The notes under the pieces: model-generated
What the model was told of the DNA's origin: nothing
What the model saw: the letters and a program-made list of their open reading frames with translations, nothing else
Databases searched by the model: none
Made by a program: the position numbers and the translations under genes
Assembly: GCA_947628925.1 (NCBI GenBank)
Contig: CANRBU010000003.1
Coordinates: forward strand, 1-33,115
Direction: 5' to 3'
Length of the DNA stretch: 33,115 nucleotides
DNA from: an uncultured Clostridia bacterium
Lineage (GTDB): Bacteria; Bacillota; Clostridia; TANB77; CAG-508
Shown: piece by piece, positions 10,001 to 17,140 of the stretch
Layout: every line of letters starts with the position of its first letter
Position numbering within the stretch: the stretch's first letter is position 1

Positions 10001-13000
10001 TCATCTTGATTTCTTAGTCCTTCTAATACTGTAACTGATTGAGGATAATCGCTTTTTGCTTGTTCTGGCACAATTGCATATTCTCTTACAACTTCTGCAA
10101 AACCTTCGTCAAGTTGCTGTGTTCTAGGAGCGTCTTCATATCCGCCATGTTTTTTTACTGCTTCTAATAATTCAGAAGAAATGCTTTCTTTATCTATATT
10201 TATCCTGTTTCCTAAGTCTAAAGCATGTCCAACTTCATGAAGAACATTGTCCATATCCTTATACTCTTTTACTCTTATAACATCTCTTGTTGGTTTGTAT
10301 AGACCATATGCTCTTTCTCTAAAATGACCTTTCTTTAAGTTTAAGCCTAGATAATCTTCTATAGTTTTTCTAATGTCACTACGACTTGTTACTGGAATAT
10401 CCTCATCCCAATCGCCAGTTTTTTCAAGAAGTTCTATTTGTTGCTCAATAAATCTGTCTGATCCTTCTGCATTTGTCTTAGCGTCATTTTCTACATTGTT
10501 GTTTATATCCTCAGCTCTATAAGATTCTTTTCGTATTTCGTCATTATTGTATAAACTCAATAATGTTTGGTCTATAAAGTCATTAGGTTTTCGTTCGTCA
10601 TATGGTGTGTAAGAAGTATCAGTATTTACTTTTGACTCTTTTTGTGGTATACTTATATTAGAAGTCAAGTTGCCTCTCGTCTTGGACGTTGAACTAGGAG
10701 CATTATTGCTATTGGTTAAAGCAACGGCTTCTTTTTTATTTTTTATTGGCTTTTTCCACATAGTTTTAACGTATAAAGAGTTATTATCTAAATTTGGAAT
10801 AACCTCTACAACATATGAAATATTATCATTGTATTTTTTAATATAACGTATAGTATTTCCTTGTTTATTATCAGAGCCTTTTATAATTTTATCGTAATTG
10901 TTTATTATATCTGGTATCTTTTCTATATCTTTTACTGTAATTGCTATTTGTCCTTTTTTCTTTTCCATTTCAACATTTCCGTGTTGCTTAATAATGTGTC
11001 TTATATCATAATCTGATATAATATGATTTCTGCCAGATATATCAATACCATATAATTGTTTGACTTTATCTACAACATTTTGTGTAGCAATACCTAAAAA
11101 AGTATTTTTTCTTGAGTTTTTACTTATAAGAGCATTTTGTATTCTCTTATGTAATTCTTTTTTTATTTCTTCATTCGTTGTAGTTTGATTAGTTTTGCTT
11201 GTACTTGTCTTTGATTTTTTCATATAACGTATATCATCATTGGATGTTGGTGTTGTATTGTCTACGTTTTTAATTTGATTAGAATCAAAAGGTATAGCTA
11301 CTTGGTGTCCTATTCCTCCATGTTTGCCTCCTGTATCTAAAATACCATCATAACCATTAGCTTTTAATATATCTGTTACCCAGTCTGGTATTACAGTCCA
11401 AGCATGTGTTGTTCCTTCTTTTATATCATCATGTAATTTTTCTATCCATTTTTCAGGCTCTATATTAGATTTATCCCACATATCTGCACTATATTGTTCG
11501 CCAATCTTAGCTGTTTCTGAAGCACGTTCTAATTTTTTTATCATATCTTGTGAAATATTTGAAGTATCAAAAGGATTAGTAATGTTTAAATATACTTCAT
11601 ATACTTTACTATCATGTTTAAAAAGGTCTAAATAGGTTACATTTTCTCCTGTTACATAATCTAACACTTTTTTAAATTCTCCCATTTGCTCAGGAGTATA
11701 GTATCCACTATTTATGAATAAATCTACTAAAGCATTTATCGCGTCATTTCCATTATTTTTTAATAAATATTCGTATTCATTTCCAAAAGAATCTATAGAA
11801 GCATTATCTTTGAATTGCAAATTATAATCTTCATCAAATCCAACATTATAACCTTTTTCTCTTATTAAATTTTTCTTGTCTGTAGCTAACAATTTCCAAT
11901 AACTATCTAAACTCATATTGTTAATTTTAAATAAGTCTTTTTCTGATTCATATTCTCTTGATAAGCTTGTATCTTGCTTATCTACAGAATAATTTGTTGC
12001 AATATCTTGGTTATCTGTAAAAAAAGCCATTGGACCAGAAGTTGCTTTGTTTGGATCAAATACATTTCCAACTCTATCTGCTCTCATTGTTCCATGATAC
12101 ATTGTTTTTAAGTTACCTTTTGTATCTCTAATCTTACTATCTTTGAAAAATACTTGTTGCTGACGTGATAATTTTCTACCCTGGTTATCAACTTCATTTT
12201 GAACTTTAGTTGATTTTTTAGGTATTCTTTCAAAAGGCAAATAATCTTCGCTACTTTCCTGTGTTATAGTTTGATTATTTTGTGTATTATTTTGGTTTTT
12301 TTGCATAGACTTAGTATTATTACTACTATCATTTTTTTGACTAATAGAGTTGACATTTTTATTTTTTCGTGCTATATTAGTAGTAATAGAACTACCATTT
12401 GTTTTGGTAGCAGAGTTGGTGCGTCTAGGTAATTGTAACCTAGCCCCAGCAACTCCAGAGTTGGTGTGTCTAGGTAATTGGAACCTAGCCATATCAACTT
12501 TTTTTATTACTCCCCTATCTATGTCATATAAAATTTTATCATTTTCAAGATTCTTTTTCATGAATTCATCATAATTGTCTTTACCATAAGCACTAGTCAT
12601 TACATTTGTGTTAATTTCTACATCATTTATTTGTCCTTTACCATCTATCTTTATACTTGCTATTATTGTTCTATCTTGATTATCTGCTAAATAAGTTGTT
12701 AGTACAACGCTATCACTCCTTGTATTTGATTCTACAATGTCTAAAGGATTATTTATTGCTTCTGGAAGCTGTTTTATAATGTCTATTCCTAATCCATGAT
12801 AGTTAGCGTTAGTATCTGTTCCATTACTTTCCATTATTGTATGTAAATGTTTTTGTGTCATCGTAATTGGTAAATTAGTTAAGCCTATATCAATAAGTGG
12901 TTGAGGTGTCTTTGATAATAAAGTCAACATATCATTTTTAGAAAATGTACCTTCTATTACAGCGTCTACTTGTCTACTAAAATTTTTGATGTCTTTTTGT

Positions 13001-15651
13001 AAATCACTTTTTCCTTTTGTTTCTATTTCGTTTCCTTCAATGTCAAGTTGTCCTTCTACAGGTCTATTTTCATTAAGTGTCATTTCTTTTATTGCGTCTT
13101 GTACTGCTTGTCCTGATATTTTTCCATCAACTGCTTTTATAGTATTGCTTTGTACTACGTTTCCGTCAGTATCCCATTGTTCCACAACAACATTATCGCC
13201 TTGCTTTGACAACGCAATTGAACCTGTTTCATTTCCGTTTTCGTCATATGTAGTTACATCTGATATATCCCAGTCATAATCGTAAACATCTTCTATTTCA
13301 TCTGCCGTGTATTGTATATTACTATCAAACATGCCTATTGTTTTGTTTATATCTTGTAATGTATAGTCATGATTGCCAGTATGAAATTGACTGTCTTGTG
13401 CTTGCATATTTTCGCTTTGAGATACATTATTATTGCCAGGCATATAATTTGTTACCTCATTATTCAAATTGTCTGTATTTTGATTTACAGGTGTCTGAGT
13501 GGCAATAATATTATTGATTTCTTGTCCTAAATATTGTCTGTTTTTAATCTTATTGCTATCTATACCATAATTGTTTAATATTTGTTTTGTTTCATCAGTA
13601 GAATATAACTTATCTTGCTCAGCAATTTCTTGTATTTGATTTTCATTTGATATAACATTTTTATTATTGCTATTTTCTCTTTGTTTCATTTCAGTACTTG
13701 CTTCATTAAGTATATTTACAATATTGCTTTTAATATTGTATCTTGCCTTGCTTACTTCTTCATTAATACTTTTTACTCGTAAGTCAGATAAATTTTCTAC
13801 TTTTTCATTAAATGCTAGTTTTGCTTCCAATGCATTTTCAAAAGGTGTATCGTCTAATAAAATTCCAGTATCTTTATCAATTACATTAAAATAATCATTT
13901 TGAGTTAATACAACTACTGGAGATACATCTAAATTATTATTTTGATTTGCAAATTCTTCTCCAAATACGCTTGAAACATTTTGAATTTTCCCTTTATCAT
14001 CTGGTGAAAATTTAATATTGTAATATGTCTTTATTCCTTCTTTTTCCAATATATTGTTTTGATTAGCATTAAGTGATAGGTCTTCTTGTTGTACTATTTG
14101 TTCTGCTTGATTTACCCAATAATTTGCTTCTACATCTTTAAAATCGCCTCCACCTATACCTAACATATTCATAATTATTGTTGATAAGGTTGTCATTTTT
14201 GCTGTTTCAGTTTGTTCTTTCCACCACTGCTCAAAACTTGGTAATTCTTTATTATTTACTAGTTTATCTATAATGTAATCTAAATTGTTTTCTGTAAATT
14301 CCTCTATATTTTCGCCTATTATTCCTCGTGTTATATGAGCAATTTGTCTGCCTGCATTACTTTTGAATCTGTCAGCAATAAATTTTGTTACTCTATCTGA
14401 AATAGCTGTTCCAGGTATTTTAGTTTTACTTGTACCTCTTGTTAAAATATCTGTATCAAACATTTCTTCTGTTTTCTTAGAAACATAACCTTTTGCAGTA
14501 CCAGTTATAAAAGCCTGAACAATATTATCTGGGTTTTCATTTAAGACTTCTTGTGCAGCATTTCCACCTACAGAAATACCTTGAGCATTCGTTCCTGACA
14601 TTCCTGTTGCTGTTCCTATTGCCCAATCCGCTAACATATAAGAAATAGTACTAGATATTTCGCCAGAAGCTCTTACAAATTCATTTTCTACATTACTATT
14701 CTTAAATTCTTCATGATGAGCCTTTCCATATATAGTATTACCAGTATCTACAATGTTGTTATATAGATTATCTAAATTTTCGCCAGTTTCATCGAAACCT
14801 AAATATTTTGTTATATCAGCAACAGCTCTTATTCCTAACGCTGCTACAGTAGTCACAACGTTTGCAAATCCTCCAGCAGCAGACATTGCACCACCTTTGA
14901 TATTATTTAAAGTAGTTTCAGCCCATTCATTAAAAGCGTCTACTCCTCCTTTTTTTATATTTTCATTTTTTTGTTCAGCTTCTACTTGAGCTTTAATTTC
15001 AGATTGTTTCGTGGCAGTAAGAGGTTTAGCATTTTTTATTTCTTCCGATGTTGATAATCTCATTTCTGTTTTATTTGCTTTATCTTGTGGTGTTTGTGTT
15101 ACTGTTGGTATAGAGGATTTTTTTAACTCTTGTTCTAACTTTGCTTTTTCTTCTTCTGACATTTCTTTTTGATTACTACTTTTTGTATTATTCAATCCAA
15201 AATTTATTGATGTTTCTAAAGAATCTACACTAGCTTTAACTAAATCATCCATTTGCTCTTTTGTTAAGGTTTGTTTTTTATTTTCTTTGGTTTCTGATTG
15301 TGTAGATGTTTTTTCTATGTTTTGCTCTACTGGTGTACTATCAACATTATTTTGAGTAGTATTCCCTGTTGACAGATATTTTTTAAATTCATTACGTATT
15401 CCATCAAAATCTGTGATAAAGCCATCTTTATCTACCTGTGATGTAATATTGCCAAGGCTACCAAAATCGTCAAAAGTATCGCTATTAAAATCAATATCTG
15501 CTTCATCTACATTAAAATCCATATCTATATCATCAGGATTAGAATAAGAAATATATTTTTTAAATTCTTTTTTTATTCCTTCTGTATTAGTTATAAATCC
15601 GTCTTTATCACGTTTTTCGTCTTCGTCATCTAAAAGATAAAGTTTTGCCAT
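7066..15651 (-). CDS. Large polyvalent (probably virion-ejected) protein: MuF-C-like RNase, ART-PolyVal, PBECR-like RNase, zincin peptidase, LPD38-like C-terminus
   Basis: 2861-aa ORF. MuF-C-like ~12505-12985 (TPQPLIDIGL..LPITM..KHL...HGL...LPEAINNP...SAYGK); ART ~11220-12190 (YHGT...FFT...YLNITNP...GYDG...NQIK); PBECR3-like ~10750-11150 (IRHIIKQHG...GQIAIT..DIEKIPDII...KTMWK); HEVGH at 10225-10239 with EGFAE. Confidence 0.85.
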   Translation of the reverse strand: MAKLYLLDDEDEKRDKDGFITNTEGIKKEFKKYISYSNPDDIDMDFNVDEADIDFNSDTFDDFGSLGNITSQVDKDGFITDFDGIRNEFKKYLSTGNTTQNNVDSTPVEQNIEKTSTQSETKENKKQTLTKEQMDDLVKASVDSLETSINFGLNNTKSSNQKEMSEEEKAKLEQELKKSSIPTVTQTPQDKANKTEMRLSTSEEIKNAKPLTATKQSEIKAQVEAEQKNENIKKGGVDAFNEWAETTLNNIKGGAMSAAGGFANVVTTVAALGIRAVADITKYLGFDETGENLDNLYNNIVDTGNTIYGKAHHEEFKNSNVENEFVRASGEISSTISYMLADWAIGTATGMSGTNAQGISVGGNAAQEVLNENPDNIVQAFITGTAKGYVSKKTEEMFDTDILTRGTSKTKIPGTAISDRVTKFIADRFKSNAGRQIAHITRGIIGENIEEFTENNLDYIIDKLVNNKELPSFEQWWKEQTETAKMTTLSTIIMNMLGIGGGDFKDVEANYWVNQAEQIVQQEDLSLNANQNNILEKEGIKTYYNIKFSPDDKGKIQNVSSVFGEEFANQNNNLDVSPVVVLTQNDYFNVIDKDTGILLDDTPFENALEAKLAFNEKVENLSDLRVKSINEEVSKARYNIKSNIVNILNEASTEMKQRENSNNKNVISNENQIQEIAEQDKLYSTDETKQILNNYGIDSNKIKNRQYLGQEINNIIATQTPVNQNTDNLNNEVTNYMPGNNNVSQSENMQAQDSQFHTGNHDYTLQDINKTIGMFDSNIQYTADEIEDVYDYDWDISDVTTYDENGNETGSIALSKQGDNVVVEQWDTDGNVVQSNTIKAVDGKISGQAVQDAIKEMTLNENRPVEGQLDIEGNEIETKGKSDLQKDIKNFSRQVDAVIEGTFSKNDMLTLLSKTPQPLIDIGLTNLPITMTQKHLHTIMESNGTDTNANYHGLGIDIIKQLPEAINNPLDIVESNTRSDSVVLTTYLADNQDRTIIASIKIDGKGQINDVEINTNVMTSAYGKDNYDEFMKKNLENDKILYDIDRGVIKKVDMARFQLPRHTNSGVAGARLQLPRRTNSATKTNGSSITTNIARKNKNVNSISQKNDSSNNTKSMQKNQNNTQNNQTITQESSEDYLPFERIPKKSTKVQNEVDNQGRKLSRQQQVFFKDSKIRDTKGNLKTMYHGTMRADRVGNVFDPNKATSGPMAFFTDNQDIATNYSVDKQDTSLSREYESEKDLFKINNMSLDSYWKLLATDKKNLIREKGYNVGFDEDYNLQFKDNASIDSFGNEYEYLLKNNGNDAINALVDLFINSGYYTPEQMGEFKKVLDYVTGENVTYLDLFKHDSKVYEVYLNITNPFDTSNISQDMIKKLERASETAKIGEQYSADMWDKSNIEPEKWIEKLHDDIKEGTTHAWTVIPDWVTDILKANGYDGILDTGGKHGGIGHQVAIPFDSNQIKNVDNTTPTSNDDIRYMKKSKTSTSKTNQTTTNEEIKKELHKRIQNALISKNSRKNTFLGIATQNVVDKVKQLYGIDISGRNHIISDYDIRHIIKQHGNVEMEKKKGQIAITVKDIEKIPDIINNYDKIIKGSDNKQGNTIRYIKKYNDNISYVVEVIPNLDNNSLYVKTMWKKPIKNKKEAVALTNSNNAPSSTSKTRGNLTSNISIPQKESKVNTDTSYTPYDERKPNDFIDQTLLSLYNNDEIRKESYRAEDINNNVENDAKTNAEGSDRFIEQQIELLEKTGDWDEDIPVTSRSDIRKTIEDYLGLNLKKGHFRERAYGLYKPTRDVIRVKEYKDMDNVLHEVGHALDLGNRINIDKESISSELLEAVKKHGGYEDAPRTQQLDEGFAEVVREYAIVPEQAKSDYPQSVTVLEGLRNQDDDFNNFISTVQEQIYNYIHQTPRNRQLGNQSIGTEKVSLSKDGVKEYLVKHIWDKDYALKVVNEEFAKAQGKKASEIEASKNIYYMTRLLNGADSKAISMLTDGYIDLNGEYLFPGLNQLGEILGNDEERWNDLRAYLVAQRDLEYKAKRLKTGLRTRDSKAVIEQFSSDAEIQEAADLVHATLDGVLQYAVNNRLITQELADNLRKSNAMYVPMQRNLEDNLSSQQARKKGIKSIFNKRTGSELDIKDVLENVLDNSVKMIKQVETNNVLKSIYKSGEEAGLTGAVYDKIEAPMKKIGKQSLEMWKNELERQSIDTSKLDLDKNMEIFAPNTNVNYKELITSFIDDNGKRVYLQFYDSDVFTSLMGADQNTASTLLKITSFLNKPLRFGATTGQIGFAIPNMISDTMQAAVYSEANFIPFVDTAIGVIDVLAARNSTMQKLLKAVAPNYLEGKAELYKLYQQSGATSSKRMSQYRKSIQEQMGEVYGIKGSTLGVERKFRPLKGLMDMLSYIPELSEEATRFKVFEKNYDYYNQKGETETNARILAALQSRDATQDFSRMGTLTSEINKVIPFSAARVGSSYTFAEKIKNNPQRVGAKLGLLITLGMMIKAIGADDDEINELNQRKKDDNFVFRVGDTIITLKKPQGILRSMINLSDYIIDLASGNIDEGKEGERLEEWLKNAIMDNMPADSITGAVPSAVLPWIENAVNKDFYYNTDIVKSYDLELPNSEQYYDYNSQLAIWLGKVLNYPPAKIDNLINGYFAGLGTDFTRLIDSGLSALGVIPEKPDMGAEQDPIGKRFVVNVNSNSQSVDDIYNLKTELKQKENGGTITEKESAQLDKITQAIKQLSSINKEIKAIKADENLSGKEKADKIRILQSEKTDTARVALGKKVINENNSSKIETRKFYPSSSTLKQNGLTLEMTTAMQEEYGNIASQMYMKYKNQGLYAQDKLESKVKDYAKKYMLQKYKSQLKKVS
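10625..10653 (+). promoter_or_regulatory. Antisense sigma-A promoter inside polyvalent gene (after PBECR domain)
   Basis: TTTACT-N17-TATACT with extended -10 TG. Confidence 0.55.
10660..10737 (+). ncRNA. Candidate ~78-nt structured antisense small RNA
   Basis: 5' AGAAGTC..GTTGC pairs with 3' GCAAC-GGCTTCT, followed by a T-run; starts 7 nt after the -10 box. Confidence 0.45.
12350..12378 (+). promoter_or_regulatory. Antisense sigma-A promoter inside polyvalent gene (after MuF-C domain)
   Basis: TTGACA-N17-TATATT with extended -10 TG. Confidence 0.65.
12385..12505 (+). ncRNA. Candidate ~120-nt antisense small RNA with two repeated hairpins and a terminator
   Basis: 35-nt direct repeat (12411-12445, 12456-12490; 2 mismatches), each with a CTAGGT/ACCTAG stem inside a GAGTTG/CAACT outer stem; ends in T7. 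Confidence 0.5.
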
Positions 15652-15664
15652 TATATCTTCCTCC

Positions 15665-17140
15665 TTATTGAATATAAGATGATAAATCTACACCTATGCT
15701 TTTACCCCAATTAAGTACAATATTAGGATTTACTCCAGCAGTCATCTGTAAAGTGTATATTTTTCCATTTTTTACAACTTTTATTAATCCATCTTTTATT
15801 GAGATACTATTTGAAGTACTGTTTTTATTTGAACTATTTGAGCTACTTGAATTATTAGATGATGTTGAAGTGCTATATTTATTTTTCATTTGATACTCAT
15901 ATTCTGTAAGTTCTTTACTTCTTTGAGTTTGTAAATCACTTTCATATTTTGCAAGTTCTTTGCTTTTTTGTGTATTTAAAGCACTTTCATATTCAGCTAT
16001 TGCTTTGCTACGTTGTATATTCAAATTGCTTTCAAACTCTGCTAACCTTCTATTGTTTTCATAATCTAATTCACTCTTTAATCTTGCTAAGGCTTCTTCA
16101 TTAGCTCTTTGAATTTCAAGTTGTTCTCTCATTTTCTTTAGTTCAAACTCCTGCTGTTCCTTAGCCATACGTGCTTCTCCTGATAGAGTTCCTACAGCTA
16201 CACCTAATACTTGACTTGCTTCATTATCAACATATCCTAGCTCATCTACTCTTTTCCAAGCATTTTCTAGTGCTTTTTGTTGCTTTTCAAACTCGAACTT
16301 TTTATTTTCAAATTCTCTGTCCTTTGCGTCTTTCCAATAAGTAAATTGTTGAGTATCATAATCCATAACTAGTTGAGCTGTTGTTGCTAATTGATTTAAG
16401 TATTCCATATATCTGTCATGTGCTTTTTCTTCATATTGTGGTATAAGCTCAGATACAATTCTAGCAACTCTTTCTGCTGTTGCTGTACTATTTAAAACAC
16501 CACTTCCAGCTAAGCTTTGCAATGTGCTATTAGCTGCATATTCTGTTGCCATCTGTAATGCTGAATCCTGTGTAGGATCATATTCAAAACCTGAATTAAG
16601 TCTTTCTATCATTTGAGCTATTAAAGAGTTTATTGTATCAGCATATGCACTTTGATACTGACCTTCTACTGAATTAAGATTTGATGTTGTTGGTGTAACA
16701 ATAGTTGTATTGAAAGATGTTTTCTTTACGCCACTTGGATTGCCGTTACTTGGATTTGTTCCGTAATTGCTTTGATAACTTGAATATATATCGTTAAAAT
16801 CAACAACATTATTATTTTGTGTTCCTTGATACTGTTGTGGACTTGGAGCATTATTGCTTTGGTTAGTATTTTGTTGTGGTTCATTTGAAATAGTTGCAAT
16901 ATTATTATTTTGCCCTACATTTTGTTGTGGTGTTGAGGGAGCTACTTGAGGTTGTATTTGTATAGGTATTGTAATAGGACTTATATTTTGATTATTGCCT
17001 TGTGTAGGTTGTACTCCCTGGGTAGTATTAGCATTTGGTGTGACAGGTTGTTGATTTTGTACTTGTGCTGCATTTTGTGTAGGATTATTACTTACTTGTA
17101 TTGGTTGCCTTCCAGCTACATTTAAAAATGTATTTGGCAT
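15665..17140 (-). CDS. Putative DNA-ejection/internal virion protein
   Basis: Q/N/P-rich disordered N-terminus, long coiled coil with 15-aa repeats; lies between nozzle and polyvalent gene. Confidence 0.6.
   Translation of the reverse strand: MPNTFLNVAGRQPIQVSNNPTQNAAQVQNQQPVTPNANTTQGVQPTQGNNQNISPITIPIQIQPQVAPSTPQQNVGQNNNIATISNEPQQNTNQSNNAPSPQQYQGTQNNNVVDFNDIYSSYQSNYGTNPSNGNPSGVKKTSFNTTIVTPTTSNLNSVEGQYQSAYADTINSLIAQMIERLNSGFEYDPTQDSALQMATEYAANSTLQSLAGSGVLNSTATAERVARIVSELIPQYEEKAHDRYMEYLNQLATTAQLVMDYDTQQFTYWKDAKDREFENKKFEFEKQQKALENAWKRVDELGYVDNEASQVLGVAVGTLSGEARMAKEQQEFELKKMREQLEIQRANEEALARLKSELDYENNRRLAEFESNLNIQRSKAIAEYESALNTQKSKELAKYESDLQTQRSKELTEYEYQMKNKYSTSTSSNNSSSSNSSNKNSTSNSISIKDGLIKVVKNGKIYTLQMTAGVNPNIVLNWGKSIGVDLSSYIQ

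Follow-up and report, generated by a model that had tools for sequence, protein, structure and literature searches.

The window analysed here, a 33,115-nt stretch that makes up the whole of a 33-kb contig (CANRBU010000003.1) in a metagenome-assembled genome with about 30% GC, contains at positions 10625-10737 of the (+) strand an element antisense to the codons that directly follow the PBECR3 RNase domain of a phage polyvalent protein. We lean towards the reading that this element is a conserved small-RNA gene antisense to the PBECR3 tail, whose product is probably the antidote of the RNase and acts in a type I-like manner. By computation, its predicted promoter, fold and terminator signals are conserved among relatives, lie on the antisense strand and are linked one-to-one to PBECR3 domains. 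The sequence of the window taken alone makes the element no better than chance; it rises above chance solely through its relatives.

A reading of the window made from its letters alone (the sequence-only reading) had described a TTTACT box, a 17-nt spacer, a TATACT box, an RNA with paired ends and two internal hairpins, and a T-run, and all of these parts are found where it had placed them, on the (+) strand. The -35 box TTTACT (10625-10630) is the reverse complement of the K-V-N codons and a weakened form of the family sequence TTGAC(A/G), because the codons GTA AAT replace GTC AAx. A 17-nt spacer separates it from the extended -10 TGTGgTATACT (10643-10653; TGTG at 10643-10646, TATACT at 10648-10653), the reverse complement of the S-I-P-Q codons AGT ATA CCA CA. 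The minus strand opposite the promoter codes for ...SNISIPQKESKVN..., residues ~1660-1676 of a 2861-aa open reading frame (ORF), in agreement with the earlier translation of the promoter as S-I-P-Q...K-V-N. An overlapping alternative match, TTGACT-16-TATATT (10632..10659, (+), 10/12), is specific to the window copy, lies 6-7 nt downstream of the conserved promoter and may make up for the weakened -35; its presence renders the 5' end of the RNA in the window ambiguous. The predicted RNA (10660..10744, (+), ~80 nt, with a 5' end placed from the -10) would be closed by P1 (10660-10666 with 10726-10732, AGAAGUC/GGCUUCU) and P1b (10669-10673 with 10721-10725, GUUGC/GCAAC). These stems enclose hairpin P2 (CGUC-UUG-GACG, 10678-10688; 10678-10681 with 10685-10688) and the two-part P3 (10692-10697 with 10712-10717, and 10699-10702 with 10707-10710, the inner part being AGCA-UUAU-UGCU at 10699-10710). 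A U-run, the T-run of the DNA, occupies 10732-10744. RNAfold returns exactly the fold described in the sequence-only reading, at -22.7 kcal/mol. The tRNA-like character suggested there from its size is not supported: neither a tRNA nor a tmRNA gene is recognised by ARAGORN anywhere in the window, and two hairpins enclosed by a stem do not make a cloverleaf.

Relatives of the element were reached through the protein. A region search with residues 1510-1760 gave 233 proteins at E<=0.001; the matches listed (the best 120 of 233) are all large polyvalent proteins with PBECR3. The DNA of 34 PBECR3 loci (L007-L040) comprises 4 viral, 12 genomic and 18 metagenomic sequences of 25-49% GC, mutually related and mostly from uncultured gut or rumen-type assemblies. 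Nucleotide searches of phage and plasmid collections with 9800-11600 gave no match, and single-protein scans of viral contigs gave no relatives; these were found with an alignment query. Seventeen distinct relatives, with the window left out, were aligned with MAFFT as input to RNAalifold and to a covariance model, R1. RNAalifold finds five helix segments with 20 pairs, 12 of them with compensatory changes: P1 (GUGGAAG/CUUCCAC), a P1b of 4 bp, a P2 hairpin of the CGUC-UUG-GACG type and a two-part P3 hairpin, with UUGUUUUUAUUUUU directly after P1. In this alignment 94.6% of the cells pair, against 80.1±1.3% in shuffled alignments, and the covariation score is 0.518 against 0.231, neither value being reached in any of 500 shuffles. 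Moving the 3' partners by 1-3 columns makes pairing fall to 33-48%.

Model R1, built without the window, matches it at 10649-10750 (+) with 58.4 bits and an E-value of 3.9e-11, a rough figure since the calibration was shortened. It finds no other match in the window at E<=10, which agrees with the sequence-only reading, in which no such unit had been noticed after the ART or peptidase domains. R1 also matches all 34 PBECR3 loci, always on the antisense strand. Four helix segments covary in the RNA of these loci. Once these 34 matches are aligned to the model, pairing reaches 95.1% (76.9±0.9% in shuffles), the score is 0.592 (0.242 in shuffles) and 16 of the 20 pairs have compensatory changes; this alignment is fitted to the model and its sequences are related, so that the shuffle statistics overstate the case and the slid controls and the MAFFT alignment are the fairer measures. 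A covariance-model search of 151 genomes of the same order matches three, the genome of the window among them, which is compatible with a sporadic mobile element and says little more. Rfam 15 yields only two chance snoRNA matches in window 10300-12700 (E 1.4 and 6.9), both away from the element, and nothing on the element at E<=1 in seven related loci.

The RNA is predicted to be ~80 nt long in the window and ~100-110 nt in most relatives. The clade of the window and L007 has lost the codons of the usual P1 5' arm and gained seven others; the closing stem that these codons provide instead is AGAAGUC/GGCUUCU in the window and AGAAGCU/AGCUUCU in L007, each with a U-run immediately after it. Still other P1 sequences occur in L006 and in the two copies of L031 (L031a, L031b). 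Every folded variant, as well as the alignment, has a U-run directly 3' of P1, which closes a multi-branch fold. The predicted architecture is retained while the sequence of P1 is swapped. The tails of the proteins P0083, P0081, P0105, P0091, P0103, P0116 and others are ~25 residues longer, with 'TS.T ... SS' repeated before SI.QN..NV, which suggests a predicted RNA with a duplicated internal segment. The P1 5' arm contains in some copies an AUG that opens a frame of 14 codons; UAG comes directly after this AUG in L009 and L036, copies of high GC lack the AUG altogether, and a small peptide was rejected as a product. The conserved ACUAGGAG resembles a Shine-Dalgarno sequence, yet no start codon follows it, and it was likewise discarded as a translation signal.

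The promoter leaves a recognizable shadow in the protein. The tail that follows the KTMWKK end of the domain is conserved whichever domain comes next, as ...(V/L)TNS...PSSTS(K/E)T(R/K)G...SI.QN..NV(K/N), and among the matches listed 49 of 51 distinct protein-database tails contain [SNT][IV]x[QHKP]xxxx[VI][NK]. Read on the antisense strand, the [S/N/T][I/V] codons become TAyAnT, V-[N/K] becomes TTGAC and the Q/H codon supplies an extra TG; most aligned loci have an NCA codon next to S-I, which gives TGn. At position x of the protein motif 16 tails have A, 13 have S, 12 have P, 7 have T and one has Q, so that A/S/P/T account for 48 of 49. The resulting family promoter on the antisense strand is TTGAC(A/G)-17-TGnTAyAnT, as in L009 (TTGACA-17-TGgTATACT), L010 (TTGACA-17-TGtTATATT) and the 49% GC locus L035 (TTGACG-17-TGcTACATT). 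The TRTG sequence is the '-16 region' of Gram-positive promoters. The codon alignment shows the 17-nt spacing fixed while the four spacer codons vary freely. Synonymous sites of the tail are frozen: S is TCA in 10/10 and AGT in 8/8, I is ATA in 11/11, Q is CAA in 9/9, V is the rare codon GTC in 8/10, and T is ACG in two columns (15/15 and 12/12) whereas the Thr codons of the domain are ACA or ACT. At sites with a shared amino acid the codon is also shared at a rate of 0.715 in the RNA overlap and 0.568 in the domain, the former being higher in 74 of 91 pairs.

The strict promoter pattern is present in the window's relatives at 23 of the 33 loci that contain the search anchor, and in the window besides; most other loci have near-variants by eye, such as TTGACT-17-TATCAT or TTGCAT-17/18-TGaTATAwT. 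A generic scorer applied to 31 distinct loci finds at least 9/12 agreement with the sigma70 consensus, with the -10 ending beside the RNA start, in 27; the agreement is at least 10/12 in 22, and TG is present in 21. The background per 61-nt window over 165,128 nt is 0.20 for at least 9/12, 0.042 for at least 10/12 and 0.023 for TG. The promoter is kept in loci of 38-49% GC. Both the window and the family present the parts of a putative sigma-70/sigma-A promoter: a TTGACA-like -35, a 17-nt spacer (16-18 nt being usual for such promoters) and a TATAAT-like -10, with TG, an optional addition, upstream of it. The question raised in the sequence-only reading, whether 'SI.Q....VN' linkers after PBECR generally encode an antisense promoter, finds a positive answer in the 49 tails with the motif and the 27 loci that score at least 9/12, and the peptide motif of the linker reads as the protein-strand image of the predicted antisense promoter and RNA gene.

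The element is also found where the protein frame does not cover it. The PBECR3 ORF ends before the RNA 5' end, within the RNA gene, in 8 of 32 loci (L006, L013, L015, L017, L019, L020, L022 and L030), and in L027 the stop lies 3 nt past the modelled RNA 5' end. The RNA of these eight scores 78-107 bits in seven and 24.9 bits in L006. Taken together, the nine solo rows have pairs in 159 of 169 cells (for the remaining rows the figure is 456 of 478), and they keep the promoter. Full-length solo PBECR3 genes of 152-186 aa are present in L006, L015, L020, L022 and L030, inserted among housekeeping neighbours (a ClpX-like ATPase and Trp/Tyr-tRNA synthetase, SpoIVA, ComM-like and SecDF, asparagine synthase, NusB). 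In L006, L015 and L020 the space left by the neighbour genes is too small for a protein partner, and no sign of one is seen. The L015 gene has its own strong sense promoter and its first sense terminator is ~370 nt after the stop, so that the toxin mRNA probably spans the whole RNA gene. Since the element is retained where no protein is encoded, a peptide motif is ruled out as the cause of its conservation, and the predicted RNA gene is independent of the protein frame.

The strand that carries the signal can be told from the pairs themselves. In the 34 rows, 569 pair cells are Watson-Crick, 46 are G·U and 4 are A·C, and pairing is 95.1% with the antisense strand as RNA against 88.6% with the sense strand; the G·U to A·C imbalance therefore favours the antisense strand. 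These data bear on the alternative that there is no antisense RNA and that the conservation belongs to the sense strand or the DNA, whether as an mRNA structure at a domain boundary (for instance a pause or processing site), a recombination junction for module shuffling, or a peptide under conservation, for example one cleaved by a protease. We regard it as very improbable. It would agree with the conservation of the tail regardless of the next domain, with the mosaic nature of polyvalent proteins, which are thought to be cut into units by their own peptidase domains (as described in PMC5512222), and with the fact that the helices can form in the mRNA too: the sense strand of the element folds at -16.9 kcal/mol with a z-score of -2.30, no worse than the antisense strand. 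Against this stand the G·U imbalance, the antisense orientation of promoter and U-run with the exact 17-nt spacing kept, the persistence of the element where no protein is encoded, and the covariation, which is unexpected for a recombination site. Two related candidates on the coding strand were set aside. A programmed frameshift at AAA AAG in KTMWKK lacks a conserved codon context, the relatives having AAG AAA, and a rare-codon pause site or recombination junction at the invariant ACG TCC codons was dropped in view of the covariation, the asymmetry between the strands and the solo copies in which the element is non-coding.

The predicted RNA follows the RNase domain through rearrangements. 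In L031 (878-993 and 1491-1605, both (-)) one polyvalent ORF has two PBECR3 domains in tandem, each followed by its own RNA copy, with different closing stems. In the homologue from the same genus (L003, G002:C8), compared with window 9900-11100, ART leads straight to the peptidase, and the PBECR3 domain and the RNA-bearing tail are both absent. Domain and RNA tail are either both there or both missing, as one cassette, and the suggestion that the RNA unit belongs to the RNase module is supported by these two cases. They also bear on the idea that the RNA is real with another job, as a trans-acting regulator of phage or host genes or as a device for transcription interference or roadblock in the late operon, which we consider improbable. 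A small RNA acting in trans would be well served by a strong promoter of constitutive type and by a fold that looks stable and has its ends paired, and an internal loop that is purine-rich and conserved (AGGAG or AAGG) is exposed. Against this, the strict one-to-one linkage with PBECR3, the tandem copies and the minimal solo modules between housekeeping genes form the pattern of a cognate partner rather than that of a general regulator.

A sister unit lies after the MuF_C domain at 12350..12510 (+), with the promoter TTGACA-17-TGcTATATT (12350-12378, 11/12 with TG) and a U-run. Its RNA has a minimum free energy of -53.9 kcal/mol and a z-score of -6.59, none of 200 shuffles being as good, and it ranks first in a scan of 425 windows. 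A tandem duplication in this RNA contains two CUAGGU...ACCUAG hairpins, which on the protein strand correspond to a peptide that occurs twice (RFQLPRHTNS / RLQLPRRTNS). The same layout of promoter and RNA, with other sequences, is seen in L003 and at the solo MuF_C gene of L022, so the earlier claim of a common architecture with different sequences after MuF_C and PBECR holds in the window and in both of these loci. In L022 (1150-2640) a solo PBECR3 and a solo MuF_C gene are adjacent, between a glycosyltransferase gene on one side and nusB on the other, each with a convergent small RNA; the promoters of the two RNAs are identical over ~50 nt. The 'LQLP' peptide is also present in composite tails of L012, L033 and L040.

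Several observations weigh against our reading of the element, and those from the window alone would even fit chance, in which hexamers resembling promoters arise in an AT-rich gene and one of them is by accident followed by a modest hairpin. Promoter-like sites in 7000-15700 number 53, compared with 48.2±7.4 in shuffles; the promoter of the window scores 9/12 with TG, and its -35 alone 4/6. The fold of the window RNA has a z-score of -1.77, 14 of 200 shuffles fold equally well, and the element ranks 26th of 425 in an antisense z-score scan of the gene. A simple hairpin terminator scan makes no call at the element, where P1 and the U-run are missed because P1 closes a multi-branch fold; termination at that site is something we infer. 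The sequence-only reading had held that equally frequent promoter-like matches in the gene would speak against it. They are equally frequent, and the case from the single sequence fails; what overturns this outcome is the comparison, with R1 built without the window matching it and promoter and structure conserved in 34 loci. These comparative data refute chance, which we find scarcely credible.

Other objections are of a wider kind. A distant PBECR3 (34% identity) at the end of a portal fusion in Burkholderia phage phiE131 gives no R1 match with filters off and shows no obvious promoter, so that the predicted pairing with an RNA is not universal in the PBECR3 family. The ORFs of L013, L017, L019 and L027 cover part of the domain only and may be decayed copies. 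The antidote role is putative, and the toxicity of PBECR3 is itself predicted from family membership. Finally, the RNA sequence is strongly conserved outside the ORF overlap in solo genes, more than a pure antisense RNA would need, and this favours a protein-binding role.

That protein-binding role defines the strongest rival: the same RNA gene, with an RNA that binds the PBECR3 domain as inhibitor or pseudo-substrate in a type III-like fashion, as the sequence-only reading had imagined. We think it unlikely, while giving it real weight. In a phage such an RNA might switch off the injected RNase once early transcription starts. PBECR3 is a BECR-fold domain predicted to cleave, hence to bind, RNA (according to PMC5512222). 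The sequence and fold of the RNA are conserved over 25-49% GC, including the non-coding stretches past the ORF in solo genes, and the closing pair of P2 is G-C in 34 of 34 rows. Each BECR-type family, PBECR3 or MuF_C, has a separate RNA family, and the RNA of the window no longer overlaps the codons of the PBECR3 domain. On the other hand, the layout is unlike that of known type III systems, in which RNA repeats precede the toxin and share its strand; complete antisense pairing would be possible in any case, as the solo toxin mRNA probably crosses the whole RNA gene (L015); and covarying stem-loops are also normal in antisense-acting RNAs.

We prefer the type I-like antidote because the solo modules resemble toxin-antitoxin pairs devoid of a protein antitoxin. 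All 34 loci have the predicted RNA gene convergent with PBECR3 and overlapping it at the 3' end, and an antisense RNA that overlaps the toxin gene is what type I systems have; the usual toxin of such systems is a small hydrophobic peptide, and the candidate here is an RNase domain, solo or as a module of a 2861-aa protein. From the signals described we infer transcription, the ends of the RNA, its antidote role and the mode of that role as follows. A host promoter of the sigma-A/sigma-70 type would start transcription at ~10660, the ends of the RNA would pair as the closing stem P1 and P1b around hairpins P2 and P3, and the U-run after the stem would terminate it. The simplest form would be a chromosomal insert of two genes, one for a PBECR3 protein of 150-190 aa and the other for the RNA, convergent with the first and overlapping it at the 3' end. 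Where the protein is a polyvalent one of a phage, the RNA gene would be read through on the other strand and yield a disordered linker between domains. Made constitutively by the host RNA polymerase, the RNA would pair with the complementary mRNA of the toxin or polyvalent protein, which would lead to cleavage or decay of the mRNA or would prevent completion of the RNase reading frame. Leaky expression from a prophage or chromosome would thereby be harmless, following a type I-like logic with an enzyme as toxin.

The gene that hosts the element (7066..15651, (-)) is a single ORF of 2861 aa. Pfam assigns to its product MuF_C (aa 948-1042), ART-PolyVal (1346-1469), PBECR3 (1527-1639) and LPD38 (2500-2680), all above the Pfam cut-offs, and an HExxH peptidase region, visible as HEVGH in the translation, lies between PBECR3 and LPD38. 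The PBECR3 RNase domain (10735..11073, (-), aa 1527-1639) scores 92.9 bits with PF18812 against a cut-off of 30; its end-motif KTMWKK is at 10750-10767 (-). The linker or tail (10606..10734, (-), aa ~1640-1682), with the RNA gene on the opposite strand, is predicted to be disordered: in an AlphaFold2 model of PBECR3 and tail (187 aa) the predicted local distance difference test score (pLDDT) is above 90 until ~10 residues beyond KTMWKK and below 50 for tail residues 144-180. The contig has the gene set of a temperate phage, which includes genes for an integrase, both terminase subunits (small and large), the portal, the major head protein, tail proteins and an internal virion protein, and the ORF sits in the virion block among head, tail and internal-virion neighbours. 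With several predicted effector domains in a virion-gene context, it is a polyvalent protein as Iyer et al. 2017 (PMC5512222) define the term. A MazF-like growth-inhibitor gene (30638-31054, (-), PHROG 1936, E 6.7e-26) at the regulatory end of the same prophage represents a second RNase toxin, of the protein type. In L014, five evenly spaced 36-nt repeats similar to CRISPR-DR22 (3006-3305, (+); 28-30 bits with a gathering score of 50) are found ~1.2 kb from the PBECR3/RNA locus.

The element adds a family of small RNAs that has no Rfam model. It explains the conserved low-complexity peptide TNS..PSSTSKT....SI.QN..NVK as a reverse-strand image, so that in this clean example the sequence of a protein is dictated by an RNA gene. 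It further suggests that the predicted RNase toxins PBECR3 and MuF_C have RNA antidotes and not protein ones, which would account for their having no accompanying immunity gene, and it defines minimal two-gene modules of toxin and RNA. It may also provide a control point within phage effector genes of 8-9 kb and a marker of module boundaries in mosaic polyvalent proteins. More tentatively, and with doubt, the PBECR3 and MuF_C modules could each have a structured RNA of their own, co-evolving with the enzyme and silencing it by binding, the linkers being overprinted antidote genes. If the RNA does bind the protein, one stretch of DNA would encode the tether of the weapon together with its safety catch: action of the injected RNase would come first, and transcription of the incoming genome by the host polymerase would then make the silencing RNA. 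Toxin-antidote pairs of RNA and protein would thereby gain a new class, and RNA genes would be seen to shape protein sequence in a way not described before.

The protein part of the locus fits what is known of polyvalent proteins, since MuF_C, ART-PolyVal, PBECR3, a metallopeptidase and LPD38 stand together in a virion-gene block as in those of Iyer et al. 2017 (PMC5512222). The text of that paper handles the domains as protein modules and does not describe an RNA gene in a segment between domains, the words 'antisense' and 'linker' having no occurrence in it; 'antisense' is likewise absent from a 2026 BECR preprint and from the MuF-toxin paper. No description of the RNA was found in the literature searched, which mentions PBECR itself rarely and has supplementary files and subscription journals outside its scope.

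The RNAs of type III systems are tandem direct repeats upstream of the toxin, encoded on the same strand and processed by the toxin. In such toxin-antitoxin systems (ToxIN-like) an endoribonuclease toxin is neutralised by a structured RNA (PMC4147584). The present unit differs in being single, convergent and antisense, downstream of the toxin domain and with its own promoter; it has no tandem repeats.

Some type I systems have a nuclease as toxin. In SymE/SymR the RNA, SymR, lies across the 5' end of its toxin gene; the toxin fold has no relation to the one described here, and there is no similarity between the RNAs. RalR/RalA of the rac prophage also combines a nuclease toxin with type I control, exerted by a trans-encoded RalA with 16 nt of complementarity (PMC4041452). 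As far as RalR/RalA is described there, the PBECR3 modules would share with it an enzyme toxin under the control of a small RNA and a prophage context; they are unlike it in that the toxin fold is unrelated, the RNA has no similarity, and the RNA is antisense to the toxin gene whereas RalA is encoded in trans.

The closest parallels come from Firmicute prophages, in which bsrG/SR4 and txpA/RatA are type I systems with an antisense RNA overlapping the 3' end of the toxin gene. The same arrangement is described for yonT/SR6 of the SPbeta prophage of B. subtilis (PMC5848175). With yonT/SR6, as presented in that source, the PBECR3 modules have in common a convergent RNA (predicted in their case) of ~100 nt with its own promoter of constitutive type, the overlap with the toxin 3' end, the location in a prophage or chromosomal island and the absence of a protein antitoxin. 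They differ in that the toxin is a BECR-fold RNase domain of ~115 residues and not a small membrane peptide, and in that the RNA family is conserved in sequence and fold over a wide GC range and is also embedded, as a linker, in giant ORFs. A cis-antisense RNA partnered with a toxin is thus of a known kind, and an RNA gene that doubles as a protein linker is the unusual twist.

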